Virus record (IMG/VR): IMGVR_UViG_3300033144_005150
Length of the DNA: 64,000 nt
Reading direction: 5' to 3' (one strand)
Source: an uncultured virus (IMG/VR IMGVR_UViG_3300033144_005150)
Lineage: Duplodnaviria > Heunggongvirae > Uroviricota > Caudoviricetes
Shown piece after piece: positions 1 to 56,704 of the stretch. Positions within the stretch are counted from its first letter, which is position 1; each line of letters opens with the position of its first letter. The translations under genes and the position numbers were made by a program. Under the pieces are notes generated by a model that saw only the letters and a list, made by a program, of their open reading frames with translations, was not told the origin of the DNA and ran no database searches.

Positions 1-116
1 GTAGAGGGCAGCGAAGGGGCGGGTCTGGGAAGTGATTTTCATGGTCGGGTTTCTCCGGGCTCGTGGGTATTACACAGGGGCGATAGGTTTCATTCCCCGG
101 TGCGTCGAAAAACTAG

Positions 117-308
117 TTAGTCGAGACGTTCAAGCAGTCGAACGCCTGCGGCTACAGGGTCATCATCCGCCTCCGATTCATGGCGGTCTGTTTTGGACGC
201 CACCGCGACCCAACGCCCCTTAAATCCGTTTGCGCGGTTGATTTGCAAAATCCCGTCGCGCATCGCGTCCATAACGGCCAGTGCTTTTTCTGCTCGTGTT
301 TTTTCCAC
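117..308 (-). CDS. small hypothetical protein (cassette array)
   Basis: 63-aa ORF with GTG start directly after a hairpin-TTTCGGGGT element. Confidence 0.55.
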   Translation of the reverse strand: MEKTRAEKALAVMDAMRDGILQINRANGFKGRWVAVASKTDRHESEADDDPVAAGVRLLERLD

Positions 309-378
309 ACCCCGAAAGCCTCCGCGAATCGAATCGCCGGAGGCTGTTTCGGGGCCGGTGGGGCTAGAACGTGCCCGA

Positions 379-615
379 TTAAAATCCGCTCTCCACTAAC
401 ACGAGGTCGGCCCCGTTCAGGGAGGTATCCTCCGCGCGCAGGCGGGCGATCACGCCTTCGTGGGACTCCCCTGGTCGAAGGGTAATGGACCCGCCGCCTT
501 CCACTCGGTGCCAGCCGATATCCCGGTGCTCCCAGAGTTGAGCCGCGCGCCACATTCCCGTGTCGCCACGTGCCGCTGTTCGTAGGTTCTTCATCGTTTT
601 CGTGGTCTTGCTCAT
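379..615 (-). CDS. small hypothetical protein
   Basis: 78-aa ORF downstream of class A motif at 643-670. Confidence 0.6.
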   Translation of the reverse strand: MSKTTKTMKNLRTAARGDTGMWRAAQLWEHRDIGWHRVEGGGSITLRPGESHEGVIARLRAEDTSLNGADLVLVESGF

Positions 616-642
616 GGTCTTGCTCTTGTGATTCGCTAGGGT

Positions 643-812
643 CTACCGGTATCACCGTTGTGTGATTCCCGGAGTTCGCGTCTTTTCGTGAAAAAGATTT
701 GACCCCTCACAGGCCGCACGGATCCCCACGGTACGGGATGCGGAGGCGCCAAATATGTTTGGCAGGCTGCGAGCGGGCTGCGCACCGGGGCCGCTATGGC
801 TCCCGGGTGATA
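643..812 (-). promoter_or_regulatory. class A regulatory module (28-bp motif, 16-bp palindrome, 18-bp palindrome); copies start at 643, 1311, 1992, 4284, 4814, 5293
   Basis: CTACC(G/A)(G/C)TATCAC-N6-GTGATTCCC, with GCCAAA(T/C)ATGTTTGGC 105-107 bp further right in each copy (4390 copy degenerate). Confidence 0.8.
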
Positions 813-821
813 CCCCAGGGC

Positions 822-1073
822 CTACCAGCGCAGGCCCAATTGGGTGGCCCGGCCCCGGTGGGGTCGGAGATTGCCAGCCACGGCCATGGCGGCCACTACC
901 CACCGTGAGGCCGCATAGCCGGCTTGTGGGGCCCGGCCAGTGCGTTGCATGTGCACCACGCAGGCGGCTTCGAACTCGGCCTGTGTGCCCCCGTGGGTGG
1001 CCCGACACTTGCGATAGGTGTCGCGCGCGATCTCGACGGTGGACTCTTGGAGGCGGCTGCTGTCGGTGCTCAC
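822..1073 (-). CDS. small hypothetical protein
   Basis: GTG at 1073 after the same hairpin element as at 308; 83 aa. Confidence 0.55.
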   Translation of the reverse strand: MSTDSSRLQESTVEIARDTYRKCRATHGGTQAEFEAACVVHMQRTGRAPQAGYAASRWVVAAMAVAGNLRPHRGRATQLGLRW

Positions 1074-1128
1074 ACCCCGAAAGCCTCCGCGAATCGAATC
1101 GCCGGAGGCTGGATCGGGCCGGTGGGGC

Positions 1129-1302
1129 CTAGCGGGCCGCTTGGCGCAGAGCTTGGCGAGCGGCACGGCGGGTGATCCGCGAAACGGTGCGCTTGGCCCA
1201 GCGGCTCTGACGAGCACAGGCGGGGCAGGTCTCCCCCGCGCGCCCCAGGCGGCACTGATCGATCCAATAGACGGCTTGCGCGAGCTTGCGTTCCTTGTTC
1301 AC
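1129..1302 (-). CDS. small basic hypothetical protein (CxxC)
   Basis: GTG 9 nt from class A motif at 1311; MNKERKLAQAVYWIDQC... Confidence 0.55.
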   Translation of the reverse strand: MNKERKLAQAVYWIDQCRLGRAGETCPACARQSRWAKRTVSRITRRAARQALRQAAR

Positions 1303-1490
1303 GTAGGAGACTACCGCTATCACCCCTGTGTCATTCCCACCCCGTGAGTCTTTTTCGAGAAAAGATCGCAGACTCGCAGCGACCGCACGGGCCCCCACGG
1401 CACGGGCTGCGGAGGCGCCAAACATGTTTGGCAGGCGGCGAACCGGCTACGCACCGGGAGCCCTATGGCCCCCAGGTGATACGCCAGCCG

Positions 1491-1703
1491 TTAGGCGGTG
1501 ACGGTCTCGATCGTGACGCGGGTGTAGGGAACCCCGGCGTACCATTCCAGGCGCATGGCCTGGACCCATTCGCGCGGGCCGGAGAATTGGACATTCTCAC
1601 TGCCCGATGCGTCCGTTTCGGTCAGAGCTGCGGTGGGGGTGCCACAGGTCGCGGTGGACAGTTCGAGGGTGAGGGCGTGGACGTTGGTTCGTGGGTGTCT
1701 CAT
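1491..1703 (-). CDS. small hypothetical protein
   Basis: ATG after hairpin-TTTCGGGGTG; MRHPRTNVHALTLEL... Confidence 0.55.
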   Translation of the reverse strand: MRHPRTNVHALTLELSTATCGTPTAALTETDASGSENVQFSGPREWVQAMRLEWYAGVPYTRVTIETVTA

Positions 1704-1773
1704 GGTCTCACCCCGAAACCCCCGTGCTGCGTGGGGCAGCATCCGGGGGTGGGGGTCAAAGGGACGGCGCCGA

Positions 1774-1980
1774 TCAGGCAGCGACGGCCGCCTCCAAAGC
1801 GGGACGCAAGCGATCGTGGGCCATTTTGAGGTGTTTCCCGGTGAGCTGCCCGTAGGTGAGGAAGTGCTCAAAGGTATAGCCCATGTGCTCGAAATCCTTG
1901 GAGGTGGGCCCCGTGGTATCGAGGCGGGTGAGGATATCGGCGGCTTGCGCCGGGGTGGCATTCATTCGGACCTTGCTCAT
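1774..1980 (-). CDS. small hypothetical protein
   Basis: ATG 12 nt from class A motif at 1992. Confidence 0.6.
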   Translation of the reverse strand: MSKVRMNATPAQAADILTRLDTTGPTSKDFEHMGYTFEHFLTYGQLTGKHLKMAHDRLRPALEAAVAA

Positions 1981-2210
1981 CTCGCTAGGGACTACCGGTA
2001 TCACCGTTGTGTGATTCCCACCCTTCGCATCTTTTCGTAAAAAGATTTGACCCCTTCACACGCCGCACGAGCTCCGGTGCGCGGCCGGTTCGCAGCCGGC
2101 CAATCATGTTTGGCGGGTCGCGAACCGGCCGCGCACCGGGGAGACCTCCAGCGTCCGGGGATCGATACCCCGATCCCCGACCCCCAGAGCTCCAGCTCCA
2201 GCTCCAGCTA

Positions 2211-2305
2211 CCCCGATCCCCGATCCCCGATCCCCGATCCCCGATCCCCGATCCCCGATCCCCGATCCCCGATCCCCGCGTCCCCGCGTCCCCGCGTCCC
2301 CGCGT
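2211..2305. repeat. tandem repeats (CCCCGAT)x9 followed by (CCCCGCGT)x4
   Basis: read directly; short CTCCAG repeats just upstream. Confidence 0.95.
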
Positions 2306-2600
2306 CCCCGGATCGCCCCGGCACAGCCACCCCTGCGGGTGAGCCCCATCGCCCCGGGTGAGTGGGATTTCATGTTCACAACCGCCGGCCACGGGCGTGC
2401 CCCCGTGCGTCCAGGGATCGGGCCCCCCATGCACGAAACCACTTTTTTCATCACGGGGCACCAACCACCAACCGGGGCCGGGGCCGTCCTGGGATCGCCA
2501 CACGCCGCAACGGCCTTCACAGCACCCTGCGAGCCGGCCGCTAGACGCTCCAAACCCCCGTGCTCCTGCGAGCTACGGGGGTCGATTGCGCCGCTCGGGC

Positions 2601-2756
2601 CTAGAGGATGCCAAGCAGGTGGCGGGCGTCTCCGAGAAACGAGCGGGTGCCGCGGGGGACAGGCTTGCCGTACTCATCGGTGACGGTCTGGCACGCGGTG
2701 GCCATGACGAAAAGGGCGGGAAGGAGGACGACGAGGGCGGTGAGTAGGTTGGTCAT
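2601..2756 (-). CDS. 51-aa protein with hydrophobic N-terminus and Cys (lipoprotein-like)
   Basis: MTNLLTALVVLLPALFVMATACQTV...; below ORF-track cutoff; follows sigma54-like site at 2781. Confidence 0.6.
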   Translation of the reverse strand: MTNLLTALVVLLPALFVMATACQTVTDEYGKPVPRGTRSFLGDARHLLGIL

Positions 2757-2780
2757 TCTGTCTCTCTGCCCTACTAATGA

Positions 2781-2796
2781 TGCACGGTGCGTGCCA
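2781..2796 (-). promoter_or_regulatory. sigma54-type promoter
   Basis: minus strand TGGCACG-CACC-GTGCA, with GG and GC 12 apart. Confidence 0.7.
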
Positions 2797-2847
2797 AAGT
2801 ATCACACGAGTGCCATACCCAACTTAGGTAGCGTGCACCGGTTTGCC

Positions 2848-3005
2848 TATGACACGCGTGTCATACTTATTCCGAATACGACGTTTTATGGTATGACACA
2901 CGTGTCATACCCAGACGCCTCCCGGAGCCCGTTCCGAGATTCCCCAATGATATTACACAGTTGTGATAGGTCCTCAGACCCTCCAACTATGACACGCGTG
3001 TCATA
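2848..3005. repeat. four-palindrome module, copy 1
   Basis: TAT(G/C/T)AC-N6-GT(C/G)ATA at 2848, 2892, 2951, 2988. Confidence 0.9.
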
Positions 3006-3145
3006 CCCGCCAGGCGCCGCACGAGCCTCCACGCCACGAGCTATCGGCCCGCCAAACATGACCAGCGGGGCCTCGAGCCCTCACACGAGCTCACACGGGA
3101 GCCTCTGACACGAGGCCAGGGCTCCTAGGAATTCGCCCGCGACCG

Positions 3146-3514
3146 TTAGGCCGAGGGGCTCCGGTTCCCCGGCAGGGTGGGGGCTCCCGGGTGGTAGGGG
3201 TCGGGCCGGCGGGGTTGCGCCGATCGAGCGCGGGCAGCATCCCGGGCCGTCTCCAGACGGGCCAGCACGGTCGCCAGCATCTCGTCGCCTGTGGGGTACT
3301 CCACACCCACGACCAGCTTGCGGCAGTGCCACGAGGCCGCCAGGGGGTCGAGGCCCATCTCAGACGCCACGCGCTTGGCCTCGCGGGTGTTGTTGCCTCG
3401 CAGCCCTTGCAACCGATCCCACAGGTCAGCCAGACCGGCGCGCTGGCTCGCAGCCGACCGGCTCATGAAACCAACGTAGGAGGAAACGACGCTCGGGATA
3501 CGACTCATGCTCAT
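3146..3514 (-). CDS. hypothetical protein
   Basis: 122 aa; ATG 13 nt from sigma54-like site. Confidence 0.65.
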   Translation of the reverse strand: MSMSRIPSVVSSYVGFMSRSAASQRAGLADLWDRLQGLRGNNTREAKRVASEMGLDPLAASWHCRKLVVGVEYPTGDEMLATVLARLETARDAARARSAQPRRPDPYHPGAPTLPGNRSPSA

Positions 3515-3520
3515 GCCCTC

Positions 3521-3721
3521 TTAGGATGCACACTCCGTGCCATTTTCACGATCCCGTTCAAAGTTCACGGCCAATTGTAGGGCCGTCGCTCCCCGGAACC
3601 CGAAGCCGGTCAGACCCTCCCCGCACCATTGCAGCGCAAAGCCGGTCAAGCCCACGAGACCCACAAGGGCCGTCGCCACACAGGCCAGGGCCAGGACGCC
3701 GGCCCTACGCATTGGGGCCAC
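3521..3721 (-). CDS. small membrane protein
   Basis: hydrophobic segment; follows 3705-3965 in an apparent operon. Confidence 0.5.
   Translation of the reverse strand: MAPMRRAGVLALACVATALVGLVGLTGFALQWCGEGLTGFGFRGATALQLAVNFERDRENGTECAS
3527..3542 (-). promoter_or_regulatory. sigma54-type promoter
   Basis: TGGCACG-GAGT-GTGCA. Confidence 0.75.
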
Positions 3722-3965
3722 CTCGCAGCACGAGCCTTGCTTCGTTGCCGCTTAGGTCATAGTGGACCGGGGGAGTGTCGGCACCCTCCGGGGTCTCGAC
3801 CATATCAGCCAGCACAGACGCCAGGACCGTCTCAGGCTGGACCGGGACCGTGGGGCCGCTAAGGGTCGCAGCCAACACCGCAACAGTCACACCGGACAGG
3901 CCCAACATGCGGGACGTGTGCAGGAGGTTCAGGACGCGGGATCGAAGGGTCGGAGTCTTGCTCAT
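3705..3965 (-). CDS. small membrane protein
   Basis: MSKTPTLRSR...LGLSGVTVAVLAATL. Confidence 0.55.
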   Translation of the reverse strand: MSKTPTLRSRVLNLLHTSRMLGLSGVTVAVLAATLSGPTVPVQPETVLASVLADMVETPEGADTPPVHYDLSGNEARLVLRGGPNA

Positions 3966-3996
3966 TGTTCTTATCACTTGCACGTAATATGCCAGA

Positions 3997-4272
3997 CTAG
4001 GCGCGGTGCTCTTCGGGGTAGGCCAGCATGGTGCGCAACTCGCCCGCGAGATCCTCACGGTCGGCCCGCAATTCGGGGGTGTCATACCGGCCCGCAGGAC
4101 CCTCCAATTCGTCGGCGGCGGCCTCGACCATCGCCGGGCTCACGTAGTCACCCGCGCCCGTGCTGGACAGGGAGTAGGTGGCCGACCACTGGCCCGAATG
4201 CCACTCACTCACGCGGGTGCACAATTCGGAGGGGAGGATAAGGTCTCGGGTTTCGCTCGGGGTGTTCGCCAT
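3997..4272 (-). CDS. hypothetical protein
   Basis: ATG 12 nt from class A motif at 4284. Confidence 0.65.
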   Translation of the reverse strand: MANTPSETRDLILPSELCTRVSEWHSGQWSATYSLSSTGAGDYVSPAMVEAAADELEGPAGRYDTPELRADREDLAGELRTMLAYPEEHRA

Positions 4273-4489
4273 GCTCGTATGGTCTACCACTATCACCCCT
4301 GTGTGATTCCCGGCTCGTGTCGATTTCTCAAAAGAATCGACCACCCCCACAGGCGGATCTCGAGCCCTCACGCCGCGCCCTAGGGACCCGCCAAATATGA
4401 CCAGCGCCCACAGGCCGGCCGCACCACGGGGCCCCTATGGCGCCCACGTAATAAGGGGCCCGGAAACGGGCCCCCGGGGGTGTGGTGTC

Positions 4490-4783
4490 CTAGCGGACGG
4501 CCACGCGGTATCCCTTGCCGCGTTTCTCGTGGAACTTGTCGAGGCCATCGTACAGGGCGATCGGCTTGCTCGTGCCATTGCGGCCGATGCGACCCCAACG
4601 CCGGGTTACGCTCCCGTTACCGTCTCCCTCAAGCTGCCAGAATTTCTCACTGTGGCGGCTCTCGTTTTCGGCGTTGTAGCCGACGTACACACAGCGCAGG
4701 CGCCAGGGGCGGCCGGCTGTGGAAGCCTCGCGGGCCTCGTTGGGGGAGACGCAGGAATGGACGGGGGTTCGATAGGTGCTCAT
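4490..4783 (-). CDS. stand-alone WGR domain protein
   Basis: SEKFWQL...VTRRWGRIGRNG...EKRGKGY. Confidence 0.8.
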   Translation of the reverse strand: MSTYRTPVHSCVSPNEAREASTAGRPWRLRCVYVGYNAENESRHSEKFWQLEGDGNGSVTRRWGRIGRNGTSKPIALYDGLDKFHEKRGKGYRVAVR

Positions 4784-4995
4784 GTGGTTTTCTCTCTCGC
4801 TCTCTGTAGGGTGATACCGCTATGGGACTGGTGTGATTCCCGGTGTGGGGTGTTTTTCTCGAATCTTTTCGGGGGGTCTCAGGGGCCACAGGGGCCGACT
4901 CGGCACGGCCTAGGACCCTGCCAAATATGTTTGGCAGGCCCCAGATCGACGCCGCAGCGGGGCCGCTATGGCCCCAGTCCCATACGGGGCGCCCC

Positions 4996-5280
4996 CTAGG
5001 CGGCGTCGTATGGGGTCAACCGAATTTGCATCCCCTTGGGGGTGCTCCGGGCTTCAAGGGTGCCCGCAGCGACCGGGAGCATGAGCGCCAGTGCGGCAGC
5101 TTCCTCGCTCACGTCCACAAGGTAGCAGTGGCACAGGGTCTTGACGTAGTACCAGCGGGGGGCCTCCCAGCGGGGCTGAGTGAGGAATTCGCGGGCGAAC
5201 CCGTGAACCTGTCGCAACGTGGCGCCGTCCATGCGACGGGCTCGGGTGAGTTGCTCGGGTGTGGGCTGGTAGGTCTCCAT
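4996..5280 (-). CDS. hypothetical protein, paralogue of 7954-8232
   Basis: YQPTPEQ...QPRWEAPRWY...LCHCY shared between the two. Confidence 0.75.
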   Translation of the reverse strand: METYQPTPEQLTRARRMDGATLRQVHGFAREFLTQPRWEAPRWYYVKTLCHCYLVDVSEEAAALALMLPVAAGTLEARSTPKGMQIRLTPYDAA

Positions 5281-5512
5281 GCTCGTATGCTGCTACCGCT
5301 ATCGCCCTTGTGTGATTCCCGGCCAGGGTCGATTTCTCGAAAGAATCGACCCACCCCACAGGCGAGTCTCGAGCCCCCACGCGACGGTCTAGGGAGGCGC
5401 CAAATATGTTTGGCACCCACAGGCCGGCCCGTACCACGGGGCCCCTATGGCCCCCACGTAATAAGGGGCGACCACATGGCCGCCCCCTCAATGGGACCGA
5501 GGCCCCCGGGCC

Positions 5513-5737
5513 CTAACGCCGGGCTACGGGGTGCTCCCACTGTGAGCGGGCCACCGATTCGACACCCTCACAGATGAGGCCGTAGCCGACACACGCGGCG
5601 AGCATGGTGAGCACAACCGCGCCACCGTTGCCGGGTTGCATCGCGTAGACCAGCGAGCCGACAACCGACGCCAGCACCACGAGAATGAGGGTCGCAAGGG
5701 CCAGGAGGTTCAGGGTGGATCGGGTCTCGTTGCTCAC
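5513..5737 (-). CDS. small two-TM membrane protein
   Basis: GTG 13 nt from sigma54-like site; two hydrophobic stretches. Confidence 0.65.
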   Translation of the reverse strand: MSNETRSTLNLLALATLILVVLASVVGSLVYAMQPGNGGAVVLTMLAACVGYGLICEGVESVARSQWEHPVARR

Positions 5738-5749
5738 ACCCCTATTAGA

Positions 5750-5765
5750 TGCACGCTCCATGCCA
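5750..5765 (-). promoter_or_regulatory. sigma54-type promoter
   Basis: TGGCATG-GAGC-GTGCA. Confidence 0.75.
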
Positions 5766-6000
5766 ACGCTATCACACGCCTGTGATACCCCCACGGCCCC
5801 CGGCCGGCCCCAACTGGCTACTACAGTTGCCTATTACGTGGCTACAATAGCCGCCACGGCTGAGACGCCACAGGGGTCCACACGCCGCAGGCTAGGGAGG
5901 CGCCAAATATGTTTGGCACCTTCCAAAACGACGGCGCCACAGGGCGAGTATGACACGAGAGCCATACCCTAGGGGCTAACCCCGGGAGGGCCCACAGGGG

Positions 6001-6174
6001 CTAGCTCATCCAGCCATTGTCCACAGGGTCTCTGTCGGCCGTCTCCGCGAGGTAGACCACGAAACAGCCCACGGGAAGGAGCAAACAGCCCAACGCATTA
6101 ACCGCGCTCAATCCGAGAAGGGTGAGGCCCCAGGTGAGGACGGCGAGGACGGTGAGAAGCACAACTTCGAGCAT
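6001..6174 (-). CDS. 57-aa membrane protein
   Basis: MLEVVLLTVLAVLTWGLTLLG...; not in ORF track; ATG 13 nt from sigma54-like site. Confidence 0.65.
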   Translation of the reverse strand: MLEVVLLTVLAVLTWGLTLLGLSAVNALGCLLLPVGCFVVYLAETADRDPVDNGWMS

Positions 6175-6186
6175 GCCCCAATTAGA

Positions 6187-6202
6187 TGCACGTCCTATGC
6201 CA
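6187..6202 (-). promoter_or_regulatory. sigma54-type promoter
   Basis: TGGCATA-GGAC-GTGCA. Confidence 0.75.
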
Positions 6203-6252
6203 AGCCTATCACACGCTTGTGATACCCCTCCGGGGTGTGCAGTCTCGTTCGC

Positions 6253-6410
6253 TATGACACCCGTGTCATACTTGTTCCGAATACGACGTTTTACGCTATG
6301 ACACAGATGTCATAGTCCGACGCCTCCCGAGCCGTACCCCGGGATTCCCCAATGATATCACACACTTGTGATAGACCCTCAGACCCTCCAAGTATGACAC
6401 GAGTGTCATA
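6253..6410. repeat. four-palindrome module, copy 2
   Basis: sites at 6253, 6297, 6356, 6393; spacing 44/59/37 as in copy 1. Confidence 0.9.
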
Positions 6411-6562
6411 GCTGTACCACGCCGCGACGAGCCCCACGGTACGGGCTAGCCTCCTGCCAATTATATTTGGCACCTTCAAAATGGACGCCGCCACACGCCG
6501 GCTATGGCACGAGGGCCATACAGGAGCCGGCCCTCGTGGGAGCCGAGCCACACGCCCGGGGG

Positions 6563-6817
6563 CTAGCTCAGCGAAGGCTCTACCGGTTGCGTCTCACGCT
6601 CCCCCTCAGCGGCGTTGCGGGCCTCAACCCGGTTGGCCTTGACCGCATCGGAGAACAGGCCCGCGGCCGTCTCCAGGCTCTCAGTGACCTCGCCGGCTAC
6701 CGTGAACCCCTCGCCGGGCTGGTAGGAGACGCGAACGCCGGAGATCGTGCGCCCCGCTTGGACCCCTTTGGTCTGGGCGTAGGTGCGGAGGATGCGGAGG
6801 AGGTTTGTGCCGTTCAC
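6563..6817 (-). CDS. hypothetical protein
   Basis: GTG 13 nt from sigma54-like site. Confidence 0.6.
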   Translation of the reverse strand: MNGTNLLRILRTYAQTKGVQAGRTISGVRVSYQPGEGFTVAGEVTESLETAAGLFSDAVKANRVEARNAAEGERETQPVEPSLS

Positions 6818-6829
6818 ACCCCTATTCAA

Positions 6830-6845
6830 TGCACGTCCTATGCCA
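6830..6845 (-). promoter_or_regulatory. sigma54-type promoter
   Basis: TGGCATA-GGAC-GTGCA. Confidence 0.75.
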
Positions 6846-6913
6846 AGGGTATCACACGCCCGCCATACCCGCCCCCACACGCCCCAGACGTGAAAAACCC
6901 CGGCCGTGGGGGC

Positions 6914-6998
6914 CAGGGTCTCAGGGTCTCAGGGTCTCAGGGTCTCAGGGTCTCAGGGTCTCAGGGTCTCAGGGTCTCAGGGTCTCAGGGTCTCAGGG
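6914..6998. repeat. tandem repeat (CAGGGTCT)x10
   Basis: read directly. Confidence 0.95.
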
Positions 6999-7000
6999 CC

Positions 7001-7084
7001 CTAGCAGAACATCGCCCCGCCGATGAGGACCGCGAATCCGAGGCAGGGGATGCAGACAGCGACGAGGAGGATGGTTACGAGCAT
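7001..7084 (-). CDS. 27-aa single-TM peptide
   Basis: MLVTILLVAVCIPCLGFAVLIGGAMFC; ATG 13 nt from sigma54-like site. Confidence 0.55.
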   Translation of the reverse strand: MLVTILLVAVCIPCLGFAVLIGGAMFC

Positions 7085-7096
7085 GACCCAACTAGA

Positions 7097-7112
7097 TGCA
7101 CACTCCGTGCCA
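7097..7112 (-). promoter_or_regulatory. sigma54-type promoter
   Basis: TGGCACG-GAGT-GTGCA. Confidence 0.75.
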
Positions 7113-7327
7113 ACCCTATCACACGCCCGCCATACCGGGCCGAATAATCGGCCCCATAGGAGACGCCACAGGGAGGCCCCACGGTACGGGTTGCCTGGGT
7201 GCCAATTATATTTGGCACCCTCCAAAACGGCCCCGCCATACGCCGCCTATGACCCCTGTGTGATACGCAAAAGGAAACCCCCGGAGCCGAAGCTACGGGG
7301 GCCGGTGGGGGCCGGGGCCCCTAGGGG

Positions 7328-7582
7328 CTAGCCCTCGGTGTTCCAACTGTCGCCGTGCAGGCGGGTGTCGGTGGCCCCATCGGCCCAGATGCGGGCGCTG
7401 TACTGGGGGCGCCCGTCACAGGGGGTTACGAGGAAGGACCAGCGGGGACCGAAGGAATCGACCGCGTGGGTCCCACCCACGACCTCACGGGGGAGCAGAT
7501 CAAGCTCAGCCACGAGCGCGCATTTGGCGCCCTCGACGGTGGTGAGAGGGGCAGGAACCGAAACGGTAGCGGTGTTGCTCAT
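7328..7582 (-). CDS. hypothetical protein
   Basis: ATG 13 nt from sigma54-like site. Confidence 0.6.
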   Translation of the reverse strand: MSNTATVSVPAPLTTVEGAKCALVAELDLLPREVVGGTHAVDSFGPRWSFLVTPCDGRPQYSARIWADGATDTRLHGDSWNTEG

Positions 7583-7594
7583 GCCCCTACTCAA

Positions 7595-7610
7595 TGCAAT
7601 TCCCATACCG
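7595..7610 (-). promoter_or_regulatory. sigma54-type promoter
   Basis: CGGTATG-GGAA-TTGCA. Confidence 0.65.
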
Positions 7611-7662
7611 GCCCTATCACACGCCTGTCATAGCGCACTTAGCCACGCCGCGACGCCGGCAC

Positions 7663-7820
7663 TATGACACTGATGTCATACTTTTGCCGAATACGCCGTT
7701 TTACGCTATGACACAAATGTCATACTCAGAGGGCCGCATACGCCGCCTCCCAGAAAACCCTTTGATATCACACACTTGTGATACCCTCCCACACGCCCCA
7801 ACTATGACACTCGTGTCATA
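7663..7820. repeat. four-palindrome module, copy 3
   Basis: sites at 7663, 7707, 7766, 7803; spacing 44/59/37. Confidence 0.9.
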
Positions 7821-7953
7821 CCCTACAGGCACCCTAGGACGCCGCCTCACAGGGGCCGCGGAGGCCGTGGTCATAGTTGGCGCCCAAAATTGGCCCTCCC
7901 CACAGGGGGCCTCTAACGCCGGGGCCCTATATAGGGGCCTCTAACGCCGGGCC

Positions 7954-8232
7954 CTAGTACCGGGGTGCGAGCCTCACTTGGGGCCCCTTGGGGGTGTTGC
8001 GGGCTTGCAGGGTGCCCGCTGCTACGGGGGGCATGAGGGCCAGCAGCATATCGGCCGGGCTCACATCGGCCATGTAGCAGTGGCACAGGGTGCTCACGAG
8101 ATACCAGCGGGGGGCCTCCCACCGGGGCTGGCGTAGGAAGCTCCTAGCGAACCTGTGCACACGCCGGAAGGTCACGCCGTCCATTTGGCTTGCTTGTGCG
8201 ACTTGCTCAGGGGTGGGCTGGTACAGGCTCAT
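7954..8232 (-). CDS. hypothetical protein, paralogue of 4996-5280
   Basis: MSLYQPTPEQ...; ATG 13 nt from sigma54-like site. Confidence 0.75.
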   Translation of the reverse strand: MSLYQPTPEQVAQASQMDGVTFRRVHRFARSFLRQPRWEAPRWYLVSTLCHCYMADVSPADMLLALMPPVAAGTLQARNTPKGPQVRLAPRY

Positions 8233-8244
8233 ACGCCGAACAAA

Positions 8245-8260
8245 TGCACGAACTGTGCCA
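8245..8260 (-). promoter_or_regulatory. sigma54-type promoter
   Basis: TGGCACA-GTTC-GTGCA. Confidence 0.75.
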
Positions 8261-8289
8261 ACCCTATCGCCTGTGTGTGATAGCCCACA

Positions 8290-8760
8290 GGGCACCACCT
8301 AACGCCGGGGCTCTCATCGTCCACCGTGGGGCTGTGCTTTCTGTGGACCACCCCCCACCCCCTCCCCCCCTACCTAACGCCGGGGCCCACAGGGCACCCC
8401 CACAGGGGCCCTACCTAACGCCGGCCCCTACCACCCCACCCACACGCCGCATGCCCACCCCATGCCCACCACACCCCACCCCATGCCCACCACACCCCGG
8501 GGCCCACCATGCACCACCACACGCCGGCACCCACCACCCCCACCCACACGCCGGGGCCTTGCCTGTGGATCGCTACCTCACCCACCACCCACACGCCGGC
8601 CACTTGCTTGGCTCATCCTCACTTGCTTGGCTCACCCTCTCTCGTGTGTGGCTCGCGCATTGTTGACCCTCGGATGCTCACCCCATGACCTCACAATTTT
8701 CTCACCCTCTCTCACCTTAATGCCTTGACTCACCCCCCCTCCCCTGGATCACTCAGAACC
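8290..8760. repeat. C-rich low-complexity tract with CTAACGCCGG/ACACGCCGG repeats
   Basis: strong C/A skew; repeats from 7912 to about 8600; sits at the strand switch. Confidence 0.75.
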
Positions 8761-8983
8761 GTATAGAAAAATTGAGGGCATGGGGGGCCCCCCCAAATTC
8801 ACCGTATCCGACCTGCAGTAATTTCCAAACGATCGATTTCTCTATTGGAGTTCATCCAGGGATGGAATCTCCGTTCCGTCTCAAAAACCGCCGGGTAGGC
8901 GCGTTAAGGGGTTCTGAAACTGGGGATGGAACGGGAACGGGAACGGGACCCTGGTACAGTGACGGGAACGGGACCCTGGTACA

Positions 8984-9259
8984 GTGACGGACATGGAAAC
9001 CGCGAAGGTCATACTCGGAGGGCTGATGTTGCCACCAGCCTTAGCCGGTCACTGGGTAAGGAACAAGTGGCGGACCTCGCTGGGTAAGCCGCCGATCGAT
9101 CTCAAGACGGGAGAGCCGATGGCCCTGGGACCGCGACTGTGCAATGGACGGACGGTGCAACTCGAGGGAGACTTTCGCCGGTGCAAGCGATGCGGACACG
9201 CGGGCCCGTTCATGAAGAGGTGTTGGGAACCGTACGTGCGCGGACTGGGGCCTTTTTGA
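8984..9259 (+). CDS. hypothetical protein with Cys motifs
   Basis: 91-aa ORF. Confidence 0.5.
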   Translation: MTDMETAKVILGGLMLPPALAGHWVRNKWRTSLGKPPIDLKTGEPMALGPRLCNGRTVQLEGDFRRCKRCGHAGPFMKRCWEPYVRGLGPF

Positions 9260-9457
9260 GAGAGCCGGAGTGGGCGCGCGTAGTGGAAAACGAAATTGGG
9301 GTATCGTGTCGGTGTCCAGGATGGGCAACAGGCCGGGGTTGTTTCTGATCCTCGTTAAATCATTTGTCCGTGGCGGGTCCTCTCAGCAGGAGCCGGAATC
9401 ATCTGGTAGGAGCCTTGTCCTCACCGCCGCGCTGGACATTTCAAGGTACAGTGCCCC

Positions 9458-9799
9458 GTGACCTTCCCGCCCTACGACACGTTCACATCGCCGGGCATCT
9501 ACGAATCGGAGCTCGAGCGACTGACCGTGAAAGATTTGCTCGAAGCTCGGGTCATCGCACCGGTTCACGTATCGCAGGTCGAACAGCAGATGGCACGGGC
9601 TTCTTCGAGCGCGTGGCAATCGGTGTGTGACCTCGGACTCAAACCGTCCATCCTCACGGACCTGGAGATCAAGGCACAGATGACCGAGCTCCGACACCGG
9701 CACCCGGAACTGGACGAGGACGGGTTACTTCGTCAGGGGATGCTCTTTTTCAAGGGACATGCGACCCCGACCAGCATCCGCAAAGCTCTTGGAGACTGA
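9458..9799 (+). CDS. hypothetical protein
   Basis: 113-aa ORF with typical codon usage. Confidence 0.6.
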   Translation: MTFPPYDTFTSPGIYESELERLTVKDLLEARVIAPVHVSQVEQQMARASSSAWQSVCDLGLKPSILTDLEIKAQMTELRHRHPELDEDGLLRQGMLFFKGHATPTSIRKALGD

Positions 9800-10188
9800 C
9801 CCCGTACATGCGCGGACCGGAGCCTTTTTGAAATCGCTGGGGTGCGCGCGCGTAGGGGAAAATGGAACTACAGATAGGCCCTGGATTTTTTCAGGACCGC
9901 TCTCCCATACATTTCGCGTACCGGAGTCTTCTTGAAAAAACTGGGGTCCCGCGCCCGTAAGGGAAATGAGACTGGGGTTAGCTATTGACCGCGTCTTTTT
10001 TGGCAGGATTCCTGATGAGACGGTACAAAGTGGTGCCACCAACGAGGCCCCTGGTAGCCCCCAGGAGCTCCGGGCCGGGGATCAGGGGCACTCGGGCCTC
10101 TCGGGGCCGCTGACGGCTCTGGGGAGCGCTCAGGGGCTGGAGTAGCCCTGTCTGGGAAGCCCGTGGGGTAGAACGGTTGAGCCCACAC

Positions 10189-10297
10189 CCAGGGGGGGGG
10201 AACGAGTCGGGGTCATTGAACCCTCGTCAAATCACTACCTCGCAGCGGGTCCTAGGAATCCGGAGCCGTCCGGATAGGCACTCGACCTCACTGCTGC
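10189..10297 (+). ncRNA. candidate structured leader RNA, copy 1
   Basis: conserved blocks shared with 11097-11210. Confidence 0.5.
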
Positions 10298-10317
10298 ACC
10301 GGGCTCAACTTTTCACG

Positions 10318-10698
10318 ATGGCGAAAGAAGCACCAGAATGGCTGAACTTGGCCAACGAGATTCGGCTCTACTGGCTCGAAGAGGGAAACCGGGCGGTGGT
10401 TCATTTCGTGGACACGCCGGGTCCTGTGGTGGAGGGCTGGGTTCGTGACCTGTTGAAGTTCACCCAAGAGCACTGGGAGGGCTGGCGCGAGTCCAACGTG
10501 CTGTTGGATGACGACACCTACGCCTACCAGATCGAGTCGGCTTCCGAGTGGATCTTCTGCAACCACGAGAACCGACCGGACCATGCCAAGGTCGTTGTGA
10601 AAGACCTCTACTTTTCCGTCGAACCCAAGACGGACCCGCTCGAACGTGATGTCAAAGCGGAAGTCACGATTCGACGAAAAGGCTGGGAGAATGGCTGA
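10318..10698 (+). CDS. hypothetical protein
   Basis: MAKEAPEW... Confidence 0.65.
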   Translation: MAKEAPEWLNLANEIRLYWLEEGNRAVVHFVDTPGPVVEGWVRDLLKFTQEHWEGWRESNVLLDDDTYAYQIESASEWIFCNHENRPDHAKVVVKDLYFSVEPKTDPLERDVKAEVTIRRKGWENG

Positions 10699-11050
10699 CT
10701 ACGACAACCCACAAGACCTGGCGCATCTGTTCGTGAACTTCACGGACTTGATGACGGGTCAGGAGACGCCCCCGGAGCAGACGGAGATCGAGGTGGTCTA
10801 CGGCCCGACTCGTGGCGAAGCGGTCCCTGGCAAAGTGACTTTGTTTGGTCGAGCGCGGGAGTCCGCTGTCTGGGTGGAGACGTGGAAGCTGTGGTCGGCG
10901 GGGGGAGAGAACCTGGGCATCTTCCGTTGCTACGACGATCGACGCCGGCAGCACACTCGAAGGGGCGGAGGATTTGGAGCGGTGGAGAAGGACGGGGAGT
11001 CCCTGTTCGTCTGGGATGCGAAGGCTCCTGTTGCGGGGGACGCTGACTGA
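10691..11050 (+). CDS. hypothetical protein
   Basis: start overlaps upstream gene end; GGGAG RBS. Confidence 0.65.
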   Translation: MADYDNPQDLAHLFVNFTDLMTGQETPPEQTEIEVVYGPTRGEAVPGKVTLFGRARESAVWVETWKLWSAGGENLGIFRCYDDRRRQHTRRGGGFGAVEKDGESLFVWDAKAPVAGDAD

Positions 11051-11096
11051 CCGGTACGATGTGTTTGTTCGGTTGGCTAGGGAATGCCTTTTTTAG

Positions 11097-11210
11097 CCAG
11101 GGGGAACGAGCCGGGGGTGGTCGAACAGCCTCGTTATCTCATAGGCCCCGCAGCAGGTCCCTTCACGGGGAGTCGGAATTCTCCGATCAGGCGCTCGTCC
11201 TCACTGCTGC
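11097..11210 (+). ncRNA. candidate structured leader RNA, copy 2
   Basis: see 10189-10297. Confidence 0.5.
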
Positions 11211-11238
11211 TCGAACTTTTTTACGGAATTTTGAGCTG

Positions 11239-11466
11239 ATGGAACTCTTCAAAAACAGGATGACGCCTCGGTTCCGCCGGCTCTTCGTGAAGGTGTCCCT
11301 ACTCAACGTGGCGCTCTTTGGTGCGATGGCGGCGATGGGATGGTGGAGTTGGCCCGCAGTGTTTGGGACGCTCGTGCTCAATGGACTGGTCGTGGCGTTC
11401 TGGCCATCGAACAAAGCATTGGTCGAAGCGGAGAGGATGAAGGAACTCGGAGATGGGAACGACTAG
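11239..11466 (+). CDS. small membrane protein, paralogue of 12116-12325
   Basis: shared M(T/S)P...FWPSNKAL motif. Confidence 0.7.
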   Translation: MELFKNRMTPRFRRLFVKVSLLNVALFGAMAAMGWWSWPAVFGTLVLNGLVVAFWPSNKALVEAERMKELGDGND

Positions 11467-11797
11467 CCCAGTTCCTTTGGTCAACGGTGAGGCGGTTCTT
11501 TTTCGTTTTTTCACGGAAGCGGAGAACGCCAAGATTCGGAAGCAGCAGGCGGAGTTCCTTTCATTTTGGTACGAGCGTGGGAAGCCACGGGGAATCGTGC
11601 CCAACACGGCACGTCAGTATCACGTAGAGATTTTGGTGCCGTGCAAGCCGGGTGACAACCTCACGTTTGACCATCACCCGAAGGAGTACGACCAGCTTTG
11701 GGTTCGTTTCCCTTTGGTCGATGGGGGCTCATCGACCAATAAGGGGAACATGATGGTGAGTGGGAAGAACCCAGGGGATGAGCTTTGCGATGGATAG
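11453..11797 (+). CDS. hypothetical protein
   Basis: overlapping operon arrangement. Confidence 0.6.
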   Translation: MGTTSPVPLVNGEAVLFRFFTEAENAKIRKQQAEFLSFWYERGKPRGIVPNTARQYHVEILVPCKPGDNLTFDHHPKEYDQLWVRFPLVDGGSSTNKGNMMVSGKNPGDELCDG

Positions 11798-12119
11798 TCC
11801 ATGTCCCCTTTGCGCTCGAGAGATGAAGCCAGGGCGCTCCGTGAACCGTCATCATCTTTTGCCGAAGCTCAAGGGTGGGAAGGGAGCGGCTATGTTCGAC
11901 ATGCACACGATCTGCCACTCCAAGGTGCATTCGATCTGGAGCGAGGCGGAACTGGCCAGGATGTACGAGGACTGCGAGACTGTGGCGGAACGAGTGTGGG
12001 CCATGTACTTGGAGAACGAGCACATCGTGAAGTTCGTCAAGTGGATCTCGAAGAAGGACCCCGAGTTCAGGAACTCCAACCGGATGGTCTCGGATCACAA
12101 GAAACGGAGACGTAGATGA
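11790..12119 (+). CDS. HNH-like endonuclease
   Basis: CPLC...HHLLPK..GG...HTICHSKVH. Confidence 0.75.
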   Translation: MDSPCPLCAREMKPGRSVNRHHLLPKLKGGKGAAMFDMHTICHSKVHSIWSEAELARMYEDCETVAERVWAMYLENEHIVKFVKWISKKDPEFRNSNRMVSDHKKRRRR

Positions 12120-12325
12120 TGAAGAATCCCATGAGTCCCGAACGACGACGGTTGCTCCTTTTCTCTACGATCGGAGCGATCGTGACGGCGTGGGCGAGTT
12201 CGCATGCTTGGTGGGCTTTTCTCCCGTTCTTTGGAGTGTACGCTCTCGTCATCGGGTTCTGGCCATCGAACAAGGCGCTCAAGGCGGCAGAAGAACGAAA
12301 AGCGTTGGAGGAAGGAAGCGGATGA
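12116..12325 (+). CDS. small membrane protein
   Basis: paralogue of 11239-11466. Confidence 0.7.
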   Translation: MMKNPMSPERRRLLLFSTIGAIVTAWASSHAWWAFLPFFGVYALVIGFWPSNKALKAAEERKALEEGSG

Positions 12326-12462
12326 CCGACAAGACCCCACCTCCTCAAACTTTGAAGTCGAAGGCCACGGTTTGGGTCGGGAGACATCTCGTTCTGATCG
12401 TTTTCTTTTTCATGATCGCCGGCATCTACATTGCCCTCAACCCACCCCCGTGGGCCCAATGA
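12322..12462 (+). CDS. small single-TM protein
   Basis: ATGA overlap; hydrophobic C-terminal half. Confidence 0.55.
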   Translation: MTDKTPPPQTLKSKATVWVGRHLVLIVFFFMIAGIYIALNPPPWAQ

Positions 12463-12477
12463 GCGCAGACCTACAAC

Positions 12478-13353
12478 GTGAAAAAAGAGATCGAGAAGTT
12501 ACCCCCGCCTGACGTTCGGGTGTCCCTTGGGGCACCTCAGCCAGCTCCTGCGGAGGGGCGTGCGGAGCGAATGGCTCTTCTTCGGAAGGGTCTCGTACCT
12601 CCGAAGAATCTCCAGGCTCTCGATCTGGAGGCGATGCCATTTCCCCAGGAACTCGACCAATTGTCGTTCGAGGGCGATGGCGACCCGCACGGGAAATTCA
12701 AGAAGGGTCAACGGATCAGGGAGATCATGGCGTTCGGGTCCCTTCTCTATCCGAGTCGGATGTGGGACCAGCGCGTCGAACTGCTTCGGGTTTTGACGCT
12801 TCCCCAGTTGGAGCAGCTTCTGGTGAACCTCAAAGCGATGGTCCAAAGGGAGGAAGAAGAGGTGCTCCGAGCCATGCTCAGGAACCAGCAGGCGGAGTGG
12901 GTCCGACGGGAGGCGAAGGCCAGGGAGGCGTGGGTCGAGGGGGAGATGGCGGACATCCAGACGGAACTGGAGTCTCCCATCCGCGACGCGATGTTGACGC
13001 TGTCCCATCCCGAAGAGCCACTACAGTTCTATGTCCTCAAGCACCGGGCCCATCACGAGACGGACCAGACGTACGACCTGACGCATTTCAACGACATGCC
13101 CCAGATGTTGTCGCCCGTGTTCCGGGATGAGGACAAGCCCCCGAAGAAGAGGGGCTCTCGGAAGAAGAGGCGATCGACAAGGCTGGCTACTGGGGCGTGG
13201 ACGAGCCCTGAGTTCTACGAACCGACGGCGGGTGCTTTACCGGTCCCGAGTAGGTGGCCGAGTTCTCGACGACCCATGGGGATTCTCAGGTACTCCGTGA
13301 TGGTTTTCCCGAGTTTTTCCATCTGCGTTTTGAGCCGGTGGAGGGGGATGTAG
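12478..13353 (+). CDS. hypothetical protein (3' end overlaps opposite-strand gene)
   Basis: 291-aa ORF with coiled-coil-like segment. Confidence 0.6.
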   Translation: MKKEIEKLPPPDVRVSLGAPQPAPAEGRAERMALLRKGLVPPKNLQALDLEAMPFPQELDQLSFEGDGDPHGKFKKGQRIREIMAFGSLLYPSRMWDQRVELLRVLTLPQLEQLLVNLKAMVQREEEEVLRAMLRNQQAEWVRREAKAREAWVEGEMADIQTELESPIRDAMLTLSHPEEPLQFYVLKHRAHHETDQTYDLTHFNDMPQMLSPVFRDEDKPPKKRGSRKKRRSTRLATGAWTSPEFYEPTAGALPVPSRWPSSRRPMGILRYSVMVFPSFSICVLSRWRGM

Positions 13354-14755: not shown

Positions 14756-15394
14756 TTACGTTCCGGCGGTGTCGTGGCCTTCGGTGGCATCCTGGATCGC
14801 CTGGACCGTTTCGAGTTCGTCTTTGTCCGGCTTGCGGAACGGATCTTCGTGACTTCCGAACCCGAGGTTGGCAGCCAGGAGTTCACGTCGTCGCGGGTTG
14901 GCGAACCAGTACTTGATCTCATCGGGCTGTTCGTTGACGGCTTTGATGGTGAGGGTGAAGCCCCGGCCGGTCACGTCGTCTTGGAACCGGAGGCGTCGGT
15001 GGCGGATGTCTTGGACATCGGTGACCTCCTTGATCCACAGGAGTTGCTCTTCGACCCCTTCGGTTTCGTTGGGGTCTTTGACCTCGGTGGCAGGTGCTTC
15101 GGCTCGGGTCTTCTTGATATCGGCCAGGAAGGCGTCGAGGGTTTCGTGGTGGGTGGTGAACCGCTCGTGGAGTTCGGCCTGGGCCCCTTGGAGCTCGTCC
15201 CATTCGTTCTGGGGGTTCTGGAGATCGGCCAGTCCCACGTCGAAGGCAGCGGCCACGGCCATGAGGGTTTCCTTGGCGGGGATCAGTTCGCCCTTCTCGA
15301 GCCGGGTGATGGTTTTGCGGGAGAGGGAACTGGCGTCAGCGAGGTGCTGCTGCGTCCAGCCCCGCTTTTCACGTAGATGGCGGATGCGGTGCAT
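14756..15394 (-). CDS. XRE-family HTH transcriptional regulator
   Basis: IRHLREKRGWTQQHLADASSLSRKTITRLEKG. Confidence 0.85.
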   Translation of the reverse strand: MHRIRHLREKRGWTQQHLADASSLSRKTITRLEKGELIPAKETLMAVAAAFDVGLADLQNPQNEWDELQGAQAELHERFTTHHETLDAFLADIKKTRAEAPATEVKDPNETEGVEEQLLWIKEVTDVQDIRHRRLRFQDDVTGRGFTLTIKAVNEQPDEIKYWFANPRRRELLAANLGFGSHEDPFRKPDKDELETVQAIQDATEGHDTAGT

Positions 15395-27047: not shown

Positions 27048-27125
27048 ACCCGCCTAGCTCAGTTGGTAGAGCGTCTCCCATCAAACGGAGAAGGTCGTCT
27101 GGTTCGAATCCGGCGGCGGGTACCA
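27048..27125 (+). tRNA. atypical tRNA, 8-nt loop CATCAAAC (TCA or CAA)
   Basis: ACCCGCC/GGCGGGT-A-CCA; canonical D arm. Confidence 0.6.
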
Positions 27126-27263: not shown

Positions 27264-27339
27264 GCGCCCGTAGCTCAGAGGTAGAGCTCCTGTTTAAGCA
27301 ACCAGGTTGTCGCCGGTTCGAGTCCGGTCGGGCGCCCCA
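27264..27339 (+). tRNA. atypical tRNA, expanded loop TTAAGCAA (anticodon undetermined)
   Basis: GCGCCCG/CGGGCGC-C-CCA; canonical D and T arms. Confidence 0.6.
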
Positions 27340-42477: not shown

Positions 42478-43044
42478 GTGGTCCCCACCAGCAAAACTTG
42501 CCGAAAATGCAACGAAGATAAGCCTCTGGAAGAGTTCTATCGCTCTCCCGACTGCCGATTTGGCCGAATGGCTCGTTGTAAAAAATGCGTCTCAAAGAAA
42601 CGTGAGGAGGTCCAAAACAACCCCAAAAGAGTCCCCAAAAAGAAGAAGTGCAATAGTTGCCAACGGGTAAAACCCGCATCCGAGTTTTCCCGTCGTGCTT
42701 CAACCGCTTCTGGACTCAGGGCGTACTGCAAGGTGTGTTGCGATCTAGATCGGAAAACTCCTCGGCAACTTTTCAGGCGCTACAAACAGTCCGCTCGTGA
42801 TCGCAACCTGTCTTTCAAAATTACGTTTGAAAAGTTCCTCTCTTTTCAAAAGCACCCTTGCACTTACTGCGGAGACACTCAGGACGCGATCGCTCTTGAC
42901 CGCATCGATTCAAACGTCGGATACGAAATACACAATCTCACCCGCTGCTGCGGGACCTGTAATTATATGAAACGCCGTCATTCTGTTGAGGAGTGGCTGG
43001 CCCATCTGGAGAAAGTTCTACGGCACATGGGCCGTACAAAATAG
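42478..43044 (+). CDS. HNH/His-Me homing-type endonuclease
   Basis: repeated CxxC; CTYCG...LDRIDSN.GY...N...CC..CN.MK. Confidence 0.8.
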
Positions 43045-43054
43045 GAGAAGCAAC

Positions 43055-44215
<1,161 letters not shown>

Positions 44216-49656: not shown

Positions 49657-50325
49657 TTAGGGCTTCTTTGATTTGCGGCTGTCATAGATGGGGAGGGTCC
49701 CCTGGTCGACCGAGCGGGTCCGAACGAGCGCAAGCAGTTGGGCTAGTGAATGAACGCCCAGCTTCTTGTAGACCGACTTGAGGTGGTTCTTGACGGTGTG
49801 AGTGCTTATCGACAGCTCGGCGGCGACCGGAGAGATCCCCCCCCGTCGGGAAGCCGCATCGACCACGTCTTGTTCGCGTGGCGTCAAACTGGGGAATCTT
49901 GGCTCGTTTGGCTCGCTTTGATGGCTGGAGGTCGCAACCAATTCGACGGCGGCTAGAAGTTGTTTGCGACTGACCGGTTTGACGAGGAGGGTGCAAAAAC
50001 GGAGGGCCGATGCGCGCGCGACCACATCGCTAGTGGGTTTGCCGGTCACGACGACGACGCCAAATTGGCCAAAACGCTCGATGGCGTCGCCAGCGAGTTC
50101 AAGACCATCGCGGCCATCGCCCAGGTTGATGTCGACTATCAGCACGGACGGTCGCGCATGGGCGATGGACTCCATCGCCCCATTGTAATCGGGGGCAACC
50201 TGCTGAACGGTATAGCCGTTGATCGTGAGGGTCTGGTGCATCAGGCGCCCCAAGGAGCGGTCGTCTTCGACGATCAGGGCCAAGACCTGCACTCGGGTAT
50301 AATACATGAGTTGCCCCACGTTCAA
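49657..50325 (-). CDS. response regulator, REC plus LuxR HTH
   Basis: IVEDD, VDINL, VTG, KP; LTPREQDV...TVKNHLKSVYKKLGV. Confidence 0.9.
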   Translation of the reverse strand: MNVGQLMYYTRVQVLALIVEDDRSLGRLMHQTLTINGYTVQQVAPDYNGAMESIAHARPSVLIVDINLGDGRDGLELAGDAIERFGQFGVVVVTGKPTSDVVARASALRFCTLLVKPVSRKQLLAAVELVATSSHQSEPNEPRFPSLTPREQDVVDAASRRGGISPVAAELSISTHTVKNHLKSVYKKLGVHSLAQLLALVRTRSVDQGTLPIYDSRKSKKP

Positions 50326-56499: not shown

Positions 56500-56704
56500 T
56501 TTTTCGTGCTCCTCCTAGATCCGCGACGACGCTGATATGGGCTGCCTTTCGACCGCCCTCATCTGAGTCCAAAGGTTGCTGTTGGCCGCGTTCTTTGGCT
56601 CGCTCCAGGCTCTCGAGAATCTCGTCGTACGCCTGATCGTCCGCACCCTCTTTGTAGAGGAGCAACGTCAGGTGTAGTCCGAGAGTCTCGATCGCCCTCT
56701 TCAT
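56492..56704 (-). CDS. small hypothetical protein
   Basis: TAATG overlap with PARP gene stop. Confidence 0.55.
   Translation of the reverse strand: MKRAIETLGLHLTLLLYKEGADDQAYDEILESLERAKERGQQQPLDSDEGGRKAAHISVVADLGGARKNG

Follow-up and report, generated by a model that had tools for sequence, protein, structure and literature searches.

Early transcription in phages is carried out by the sigma-70 polymerase of the host or by polymerases and sigma factors that the phage makes itself, and in T4-type phages PeSL-type cassettes, in which an early promoter and a stem-loop surround small open reading frames (ORFs), occupy variable regions of the genome. Bacterial sigma-54 promoters carry a -24 and a -12 block, of which TGGCAC and TGC are described as the highly conserved parts (PMC12316311), and the Myxococcus consensus is quoted in PMC12754779 as yTGGCACGrnnnTTGCw. 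A natural phage regulon on such promoters was not found in the open-access literature, whose silence does not prove absence. Here we analyse nine short sites, termed class I, that precede very small genes in a stretch of 64,000 nucleotides (the window) from an uncultured virus of the Caudoviricetes (IMG/VR record IMGVR_UViG_3300033144_005150). The array is real, it is conserved in relatives and it is best read as a set of promoters; from the sequence of the sites we favour, on balance and with modest confidence, the view that these are sigma-54 promoters.

The original prediction had named eight minus-strand sites, and a scan with the pattern YGGYAYRNNNNKTGCA recovered all of them together with a ninth, at 3979-3994, that had been overlooked. 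The nine matches in the window all lie on the minus strand between 2781 and 8260, against 0.18 expected, and none of 100 shuffled sequences reached this number. A weight matrix built from the window's own sites gave strong matches (at least 19 bits) at eight places only, again on the minus strand (2780-8261), the rest of the window standing near shuffle level (14 matches of at least 10 bits against a mean of 3.8 in 20 shuffles). As had been proposed, the ATG or GTG opens 13 nt from the motif in seven of the nine sites, after a gap of 12 bases behind TGCA (start codons at 3514, 5737, 6174, 6817, 7084, 7582 and 8232; frames of 27-122 codons). The tiny membrane proteins that it had mentioned are also borne out, four of the 13 early products checked being very hydrophobic (27, 51, 57 and 74 aa; Kyte-Doolittle 19-residue maximum 2.4-2.9).

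Conservation of the sites was followed in metagenomes and in virus records. A metagenome scan for the operator and core together returned about 75 loci, of which six short contigs (L106, L107, L117, L124, L127 and L168) come from relatives and the remainder are single chance matches in unrelated DNA. Together with these contigs the window provides 21 unique class I sites, in which the gap from TGCA to the start codon is 12 bases in 17 cases, 13 bases in one, and 24 or 27 bases with a conserved purine-rich leader in two, one site being doubtful. The five spacer columns carry 0.14-1.07 bits and both flanking blocks are fixed; the invariance of GG, A and TGCA across the 21 sites is, against our reading, partly imposed by the search pattern. 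The proteins encoded downstream are mostly unrelated, yet 11 of 18 open with (A/G)TG AGC. A collection of cultured phages held no DNA match to window positions 2400-8500 and none to the 92-aa early protein, and in IMG/VR neither the operator-plus-core pattern nor two proteins used as queries found a match; phage-record relatives were reached there only through the gene for elongation factor Tu (EF-Tu). One of these, G074, is a record of 618,736 bases, estimated to be 92% complete, in which 350-395 kb is collinear with 16-64 kb of the window and homologs of the early genes lie at 405-409 kb, with 85% identity to the 92-aa early product and 79% to the helicase. This collinearity within 619 kb indicates that the window belongs to a huge phage. 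G074 also offers a less biased test: the matrix gives seven matches of at least 13 bits in 619 kb, four of them in the homologous early region, and these four all keep TTGGCAC and TGCAT, with G, C, C and A as the base before TGC, a 12-base gap to GTG in three and a long purine-rich leader in one. Such a pattern of conservation points to selection on the two blocks, on their spacing and on the distance to the start codon.

The individual sites, all on the minus strand, differ mainly in the genes that follow them. The core TGGCAC-N5-GTGCA at 8245..8260, whose orthologous site in G074 lies at 405265, precedes a 92-aa gene (7954-8232) that starts at the 13th base, and a weaker core, CGGTAT-N5-TTGCA at 7595..7610 (matrix score 12.5), in which GG and GC are kept, precedes an 84-aa gene (7328-7582). 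Further cores at 7097..7112, 6830..6845, 6187..6202 and 5750..5765 stand before a 27-aa membrane micro-gene (7001-7084), an 84-aa gene with a GTG start (6563-6817), a 57-aa membrane gene (6001-6174) and a 74-aa membrane gene with a GTG start (5513-5737), respectively. At 3979..3994 the gap is 13 bases, with the ATG of an 86-aa gene (3705-3965) at 3965, and its L124 ortholog reads TTGCA with a gap of 12 bases. The core at 3527..3542 lies inside the end of an ORF (3521-3721) and is followed by a 122-aa gene (3146-3514), while that at 2781..2796 is separated by a 24-base purine-rich leader, conserved in L124, from the ATG at 2756 of a 51-aa membrane gene (2601-2756).

The phage consensus, tTGGCAYr-N4-(G)TGCAt, fits all conserved letters of the sigma-54 consensus except the first T of TTGC. 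GG and GC are ten bases apart in nine of nine window sites, in 21 of 21 when the relatives are included (a count that the search pattern partly imposes) and in all four sites found by the matrix in G074. As in the sigma-54 promoters of bacteria (PkatB and PahpC of M. xanthus with the activator PexR, PMC12754779; E. coli, PMC4591121), TGGCAY and TGC stand at exact spacing, with Y before TGG, R after CAY, W after TGC and tandem pseudo-palindromes upstream. The phage sites differ from those promoters in their location in a phage, in their density (nine within 5.5 kb), in having mostly G before TGC and in a palindrome that abuts the -24 block. The myxophage Mx1 has no match to TGGCAY-N5-KTGCW in 169,621 bases, so the array is not a general trait of large myxophages. 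The early promoters of phiC31 were dropped as a possible sigma-54-like parallel, since GGY-N9-TGCW gives 12 matches against 51 in the control for the phiC31 record.

A possible host is indicated by the EF-Tu gene, which is full-length in the window (42986-44215, plus strand). Its product shares 77% identity with the only EF-Tu-like gene seen in the Nannocystaceae genome G001, and a third EF-Tu paralog, 63-77% identical to the phage protein, occurs in 20 of 41 genomes of the same Myxococcota order, the ordinary tuf copies of which are 56-61% identical to it. A FastTree phylogeny of 58 of 98 rows, 40 having been dropped because they lacked an exact G1 motif or were shorter than 330 aa, places the phage EF-Tu inside the third-paralog clade with SH-like support of 95-96. 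The neighbourhoods of the paralogs in four genomes of the order hold no other window gene, which makes this gene exchange with that lineage and not a prophage. The host is probably a myxobacterial lineage of this order, as judged from the EF-Tu tree. The order is equipped for sigma-54 transcription: all 41 sampled genomes have a Sigma54_DBD match over the cut-off, and each of three has 31-35 matches to Sigma54_activat. Myxococcota are described as rich in sigma-54 activators, and sigma-54 as essential in M. xanthus (PMC12316311). Further large virus records in IMG/VR carry EF-Tu at 60-81% identity. A candidate CRISPR-spacer link was discarded, the 35-base match at 97% in genome G002 being coding homology to the neighbourhood of the DUF6915 gene with no repeat array. 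In the same genome a 24.8-kb contig of the inferred host order (L224, G002:C6) holds, at 11685-12534, homologs of the window DUF6915 gene and of two neighbours (26-47% identity) and, at 3695-3710, one intergenic TGGCAC-N5-GTGCAT site with AATCACACA in front.

The rule that transcription starts 19 bp after the motif centre, as given in PMC4591121, places the predicted start of the class I sites 2 bases ahead of the start codon, on the final G of a conserved run. This run keeps its distance from TGCAT also in units whose start codon is shifted 24-38 bases downstream, as would fit an initiating G tied to the promoter. Because the gap is fixed at 12 bases in 17 of 21 sites, we infer that the messages are near-leaderless with a predicted 2-base leader, within the definition used in PMC12754779 (at most 5 bases from start site to start codon). 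The leaderless translation of the original prediction is thus retained in the form of a predicted 2-3 base leader, the fixed gap putting the predicted start 2 bases before the start codon. The sole purine run, GGGG, stops one base short of the start codon and would leave no room for a Shine-Dalgarno sequence at normal spacing; in this, in the fixed distance from promoter to start and in the second codon AGC in 11 of 18 genes of unrelated proteins, the phage genes resemble those with leaderless mRNAs. Known leaderless mRNAs are driven by sigma-70-family promoters, and the phage start site is a predicted one. The M. xanthus pexR is itself proposed to be leaderless from a sigma-A promoter (PMC12754779), and in Sinorhizobium 171 leaderless starts were mapped, all AUG (PMC3616915), in contrast to the GTG at five of 18 phage starts.

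Most class I cores are preceded by an 18-bp palindrome, TATSRC-N6-GTSATA, that stops 5 bases before TGG, as at 5770..5787, 6850-6867, 7117-7134 and 8265-8282. About 22 such palindromes occur in the early region, and all 37 strand matches fall within 795-8282, with 0.01 expected. A 172-base unit with five palindromes at conserved spacing lies upstream of three of the nine promoters: on the minus strand, enhancer-like or operator-array clusters occupy 2800..3018 upstream of the promoter at 2781, 6207..6423 upstream of 6187 with the spacing of the first, and 7615..7833 upstream of 7595. In M. xanthus three tandem repeats are reported to be enough for binding of PexR (PMC12754779). Put together, the nine sites would be the core promoters of self-contained units, each with its own promoter and micro-gene and some with a hairpin, that occupy the early variable region of a huge phage genome. 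Host RNA polymerase with sigma-54 would most likely bind TTGGCAY as the -24 block and nTGCAT as the -12 block; an enhancer-binding ATPase would then open the DNA, the upstream palindromes being candidate binding sites for it. Transcription would begin within the conserved run of G, some 2 bases ahead of the ATG or GTG, and yield nearly leaderless messages.

The relatives show that the units are exchanged. Parts of the region were found in contigs of public marine, sediment, seep and vent metagenomes (20 rows, 15 studies), and strain variation was read from the contigs of four runs, the longest of 133,280 bases, a kind of evidence that cannot show transcription starts. In these four runs cassettes are deleted or replaced with joints in repeated regulatory DNA, for example from 5791 to 6234, or from 6522 to 7096 with 486 other letters between. 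In L168 and L107 the regulatory stretches are 91-98% identical to the window and the micro-genes differ; homology to the window stops at 7096 and 6186, at the 3' edge of the cores at 7097..7112 and 6187..6202, and in L124 a promoter is truncated at a deletion joint. Since the joints lie in repeated promoters, these appear to double as recombination points. The region thus has what a promoter-bounded mobile cassette requires, namely small ORFs, repeated regulatory flanks and gene content shuffled between related phages. It is like the PeSL cassettes in its small genes of unknown function with their own promoter and often a hairpin, swapped between strains at joints in repeated regulatory DNA. 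Unlike the PeSL cassettes, which have sigma-70 early promoters and ordinary leaders, it has a sigma-54-like core and a gap fixed at 12 bases.

A number of observations weigh against sigma-54 promoters. Of 20 sites in the window's lineage, 18 have G before TGC; among the 42 intergenic sense sites in Table 1 of PMC4591121 for E. coli, as counted by eye, this place is taken by T in 29, C in 7, A in 5 and G in one, a variable position at which G is seldom seen. When five genomes of the inferred host order were scanned, YTGGCAYR-N4-TTGCW, the canonical form, proved enriched (26 matches against 4 in a reversed control), with T as the last letter of 25 of the 26. The GTGCW form showed no enrichment (33 against 55 in the control), although one 17-mer of this form recurs in four of the five genomes. 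With G before TGC in the phage and the canonical form in the host genomes, the phage -12 block is a deviant version of that of the host. The nearest palindrome abuts the -24 block, an odd position for an enhancer, and the same palindromes also precede the class II motifs described below, which do not resemble sigma-54 promoters. Near-leaderless messages raise difficulties of their own. The shortest predicted distance from start to gene among the E. coli protein genes in PMC4591121 is 18 bases, which makes a regular 2-base leader unusual, and GTG serves as start codon at five of 18 sites. The context GGGG-N-start also occurs behind promoterless hairpins (two window genes, three G074 genes), so the run may act on RNA or be left over from cassette joints. 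The host lineage, moreover, is read from one gene tree only.

The search for phage transcription genes weighs in the same direction as regards the activator. No sigma-54 activator domain (PF00158) was found in 82 window ORFs, the best hit in a tblastn search of the window with four host activators had an E value of 0.35, and four related phage records, of which three are 90% complete or more, contain no match to Sigma54_activat; the same four records have none to Sigma54_DBD, and G074 has no match to RNA_pol_Rpb1_2. A gene for RpoN or a bacterial enhancer-binding protein in the phage DNA, which the original prediction had suggested looking for, was thus not found in the window, in G074 or in the related records by profile searches or, for activators in the window, by tblastn. 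Lacking sigma-54, activator and polymerase genes in these searches, the phage family appears to rely on the host polymerase, and the activator, if sigma-54 is used, must be that of the host or of unknown kind. Because none was seen in the phage, the ATPase of the proposed mechanism would probably be the host's. The idea of a phage regulon on host sigma-54 accordingly stands as regards the blocks and their spacing, which match and are kept in relatives while spacer and genes change, and as regards the host lineage, which has sigma-54; its activator was not found.

Of the other explanations, the one that survives best holds that the sites are promoters for a phage-specific factor, a divergent sigma or a polymerase-retargeting protein encoded outside the window, and that their likeness to -24/-12 promoters is fortuitous. 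This we regard as unlikely, though it has points in its favour, of which the first two also count against sigma-54: G074 (near 481.4-481.6 kb) and G075 each hold an ORF of 434-447 aa with a weak match to Sigma70_r2 that stays below the cut-off (E about 1e-3), the host sites do not share the G in front of TGC and the A/T behind it, the early genes would need no host activator, and the large myxophage Mx1 is annotated with a sigma factor of its own. A factor of the sigma-70 family, however, recognises -35 and -10 elements separated by about 17 bases, with A at position -11, and here the blocks are 5 apart and A occupies the -11 place of the would-be -10 hexamer in one of 20 sites. A chance match to both sigma-54 blocks at exact spacing is also improbable, and a divergent factor with a sigma-54-like DNA-binding domain finds no counterpart in the four related records.

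We give a still lower probability to a variant in which the units are portable sigma-54 cassettes that work without a classical enhancer-binding ATPase. The deviant -12 block nTGCAT and the abutting palindrome, of repressor type, would then allow the host sigma-54 polymerase to fire alone or with a small phage helix-turn-helix (HTH) protein as an activator of a new kind; messages that begin 2 bases ahead of the start codon would be translated in leaderless fashion, and the promoters would serve as recombination points for the exchange of micro-genes.

Slightly more doubtful again is a set of sigma-70-type promoters, in which GTGATA would be a -35-like element, CATnnW a weak -10, the palindrome-binding protein an activator and TGGCA the site of another regulator. 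GTGATA does lie 18 bases before CATnnW and agrees with the -35 consensus in four of six letters, the palindromes have their centres close to -40, and a 212-aa HTH protein (14756-15394) matches phage repressor families. A consensus scan, on the other hand, found no sigma-70-type promoter in window positions 1-10000 (2.4 expected), the best-conserved letters, TGGCA and TGCA, would fall in the spacer, and in the relatives it is the left half of the palindrome that decays and TGGCA and TGCA that stay. At the same low level we set the proposal that the sites are not promoters and mark instead cassette-exchange boundaries, or RNA-processing sites that trim one long transcript to the start codons: strain homology breaks exactly at the 3' edge of the motif (7096 and 6186, and the joint from 6522 to 7096), the motif is truncated at the deletion joint of L124 and GGGG-N-start occurs without the motif, but repeated promoters are good substrates for homologous recombination, so that the joints are no argument against promoter function, six of 13 genes end in a G+C hairpin and a T-rich run and the units thus look separate, and no Rfam family reached threshold in window positions 1-12000. 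A hairpin of DNA or RNA in the core itself (GCAY-N5-GTGC) was rejected, having only 3-4 pairs, mismatches in about half of the sites and no compensating change.

Other elements surround the class I sites. The class II motif, GGGAATSACAC-N7-ATASYGGTA, has six matches on the minus strand (644-670, 1312-1338, 1993-2019, 4285-4311, 4815-4841 and 5294-5320; 0 expected), which lie 8-30 bases before start codons with a TTTTCGAGAAA-type palindrome in front; the GTGATA half-site is shared, and the motif is also present in the relatives L107 and L127. It is unlike a sigma-54 promoter and may be a promoter read by a different sigma factor. A second palindrome of 16 bp, GCCAAAYATRWTTGGC, is found at 7201..7216 and at seven further places within 748-7216, with none expected, in most cases some 100 bases ahead of a class I or class II motif, and could be a protein site or an RNA hairpin; its arms include TTGGCA, the letters of the -24 block. 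Terminator-like G+C hairpins with a T-rich run on the minus strand are those at 7278..7301, after the gene at 7328-7582, and similar ones at 2555-2581 and 5465-5487; a simple terminator scan was not significant (9 against 6.1). Some early genes directly follow a G+C hairpin and TTTCGGGGT with no promoter motif, at 1073 and 308 (minus strand) in the window and at 407906, 410316 and 408640 in G074. Perfect tandem repeats lie between early genes: an 8-base unit in about 12 copies at 6898-7001, behind the 27-aa gene, and, near 2200 (2168-2315), G-rich units of 7 and 14 bases, which cause spurious matches to many genomes. The leftward early genes are divided from rightward genes by a non-coding stretch at 8290-8800 with C-rich direct repeats and repeats of CCGGCGTTAGR, of which the window has six where 0.06 are expected; this stretch may have the role of a control region or an origin.

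The window further encodes 22 tRNA genes, a CCA-adding enzyme, a PARP-like protein, a UvrD-type helicase and HTH regulators beside EF-Tu. A 117-aa HTH protein (60919-61272) and a response regulator (49657-50325) are, with the 212-aa HTH protein, candidates for binding the two kinds of palindrome. Two of the tRNA genes, at 27048-27125 and 27264-27339 (plus strand), were called with four-base anticodons (tcaa and aagc) and no amino-acid assignment, and may be frameshift-type tRNAs, broken genes or artefacts of the caller. A 582-aa protein with a PARP catalytic domain (56704-58452, minus strand) and a 97-aa WGR-domain protein (4490-4783, minus strand), the latter with a class II motif upstream, hint at ADP-ribosylation functions in the phage.

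If the favoured reading is true, a family of huge marine phages depends on the sigma-54 system of its hosts and must find or bring an activator, which would provide a handle both on host range and on how sigma-54 is switched on. With its fixed leader of 2 bases, the array would be the first case in which initiation by sigma-54 is regularly coupled to leaderless translation. The swapping of cassettes at promoters, finally, suggests how such phages trade small genes, which may act in host takeover.

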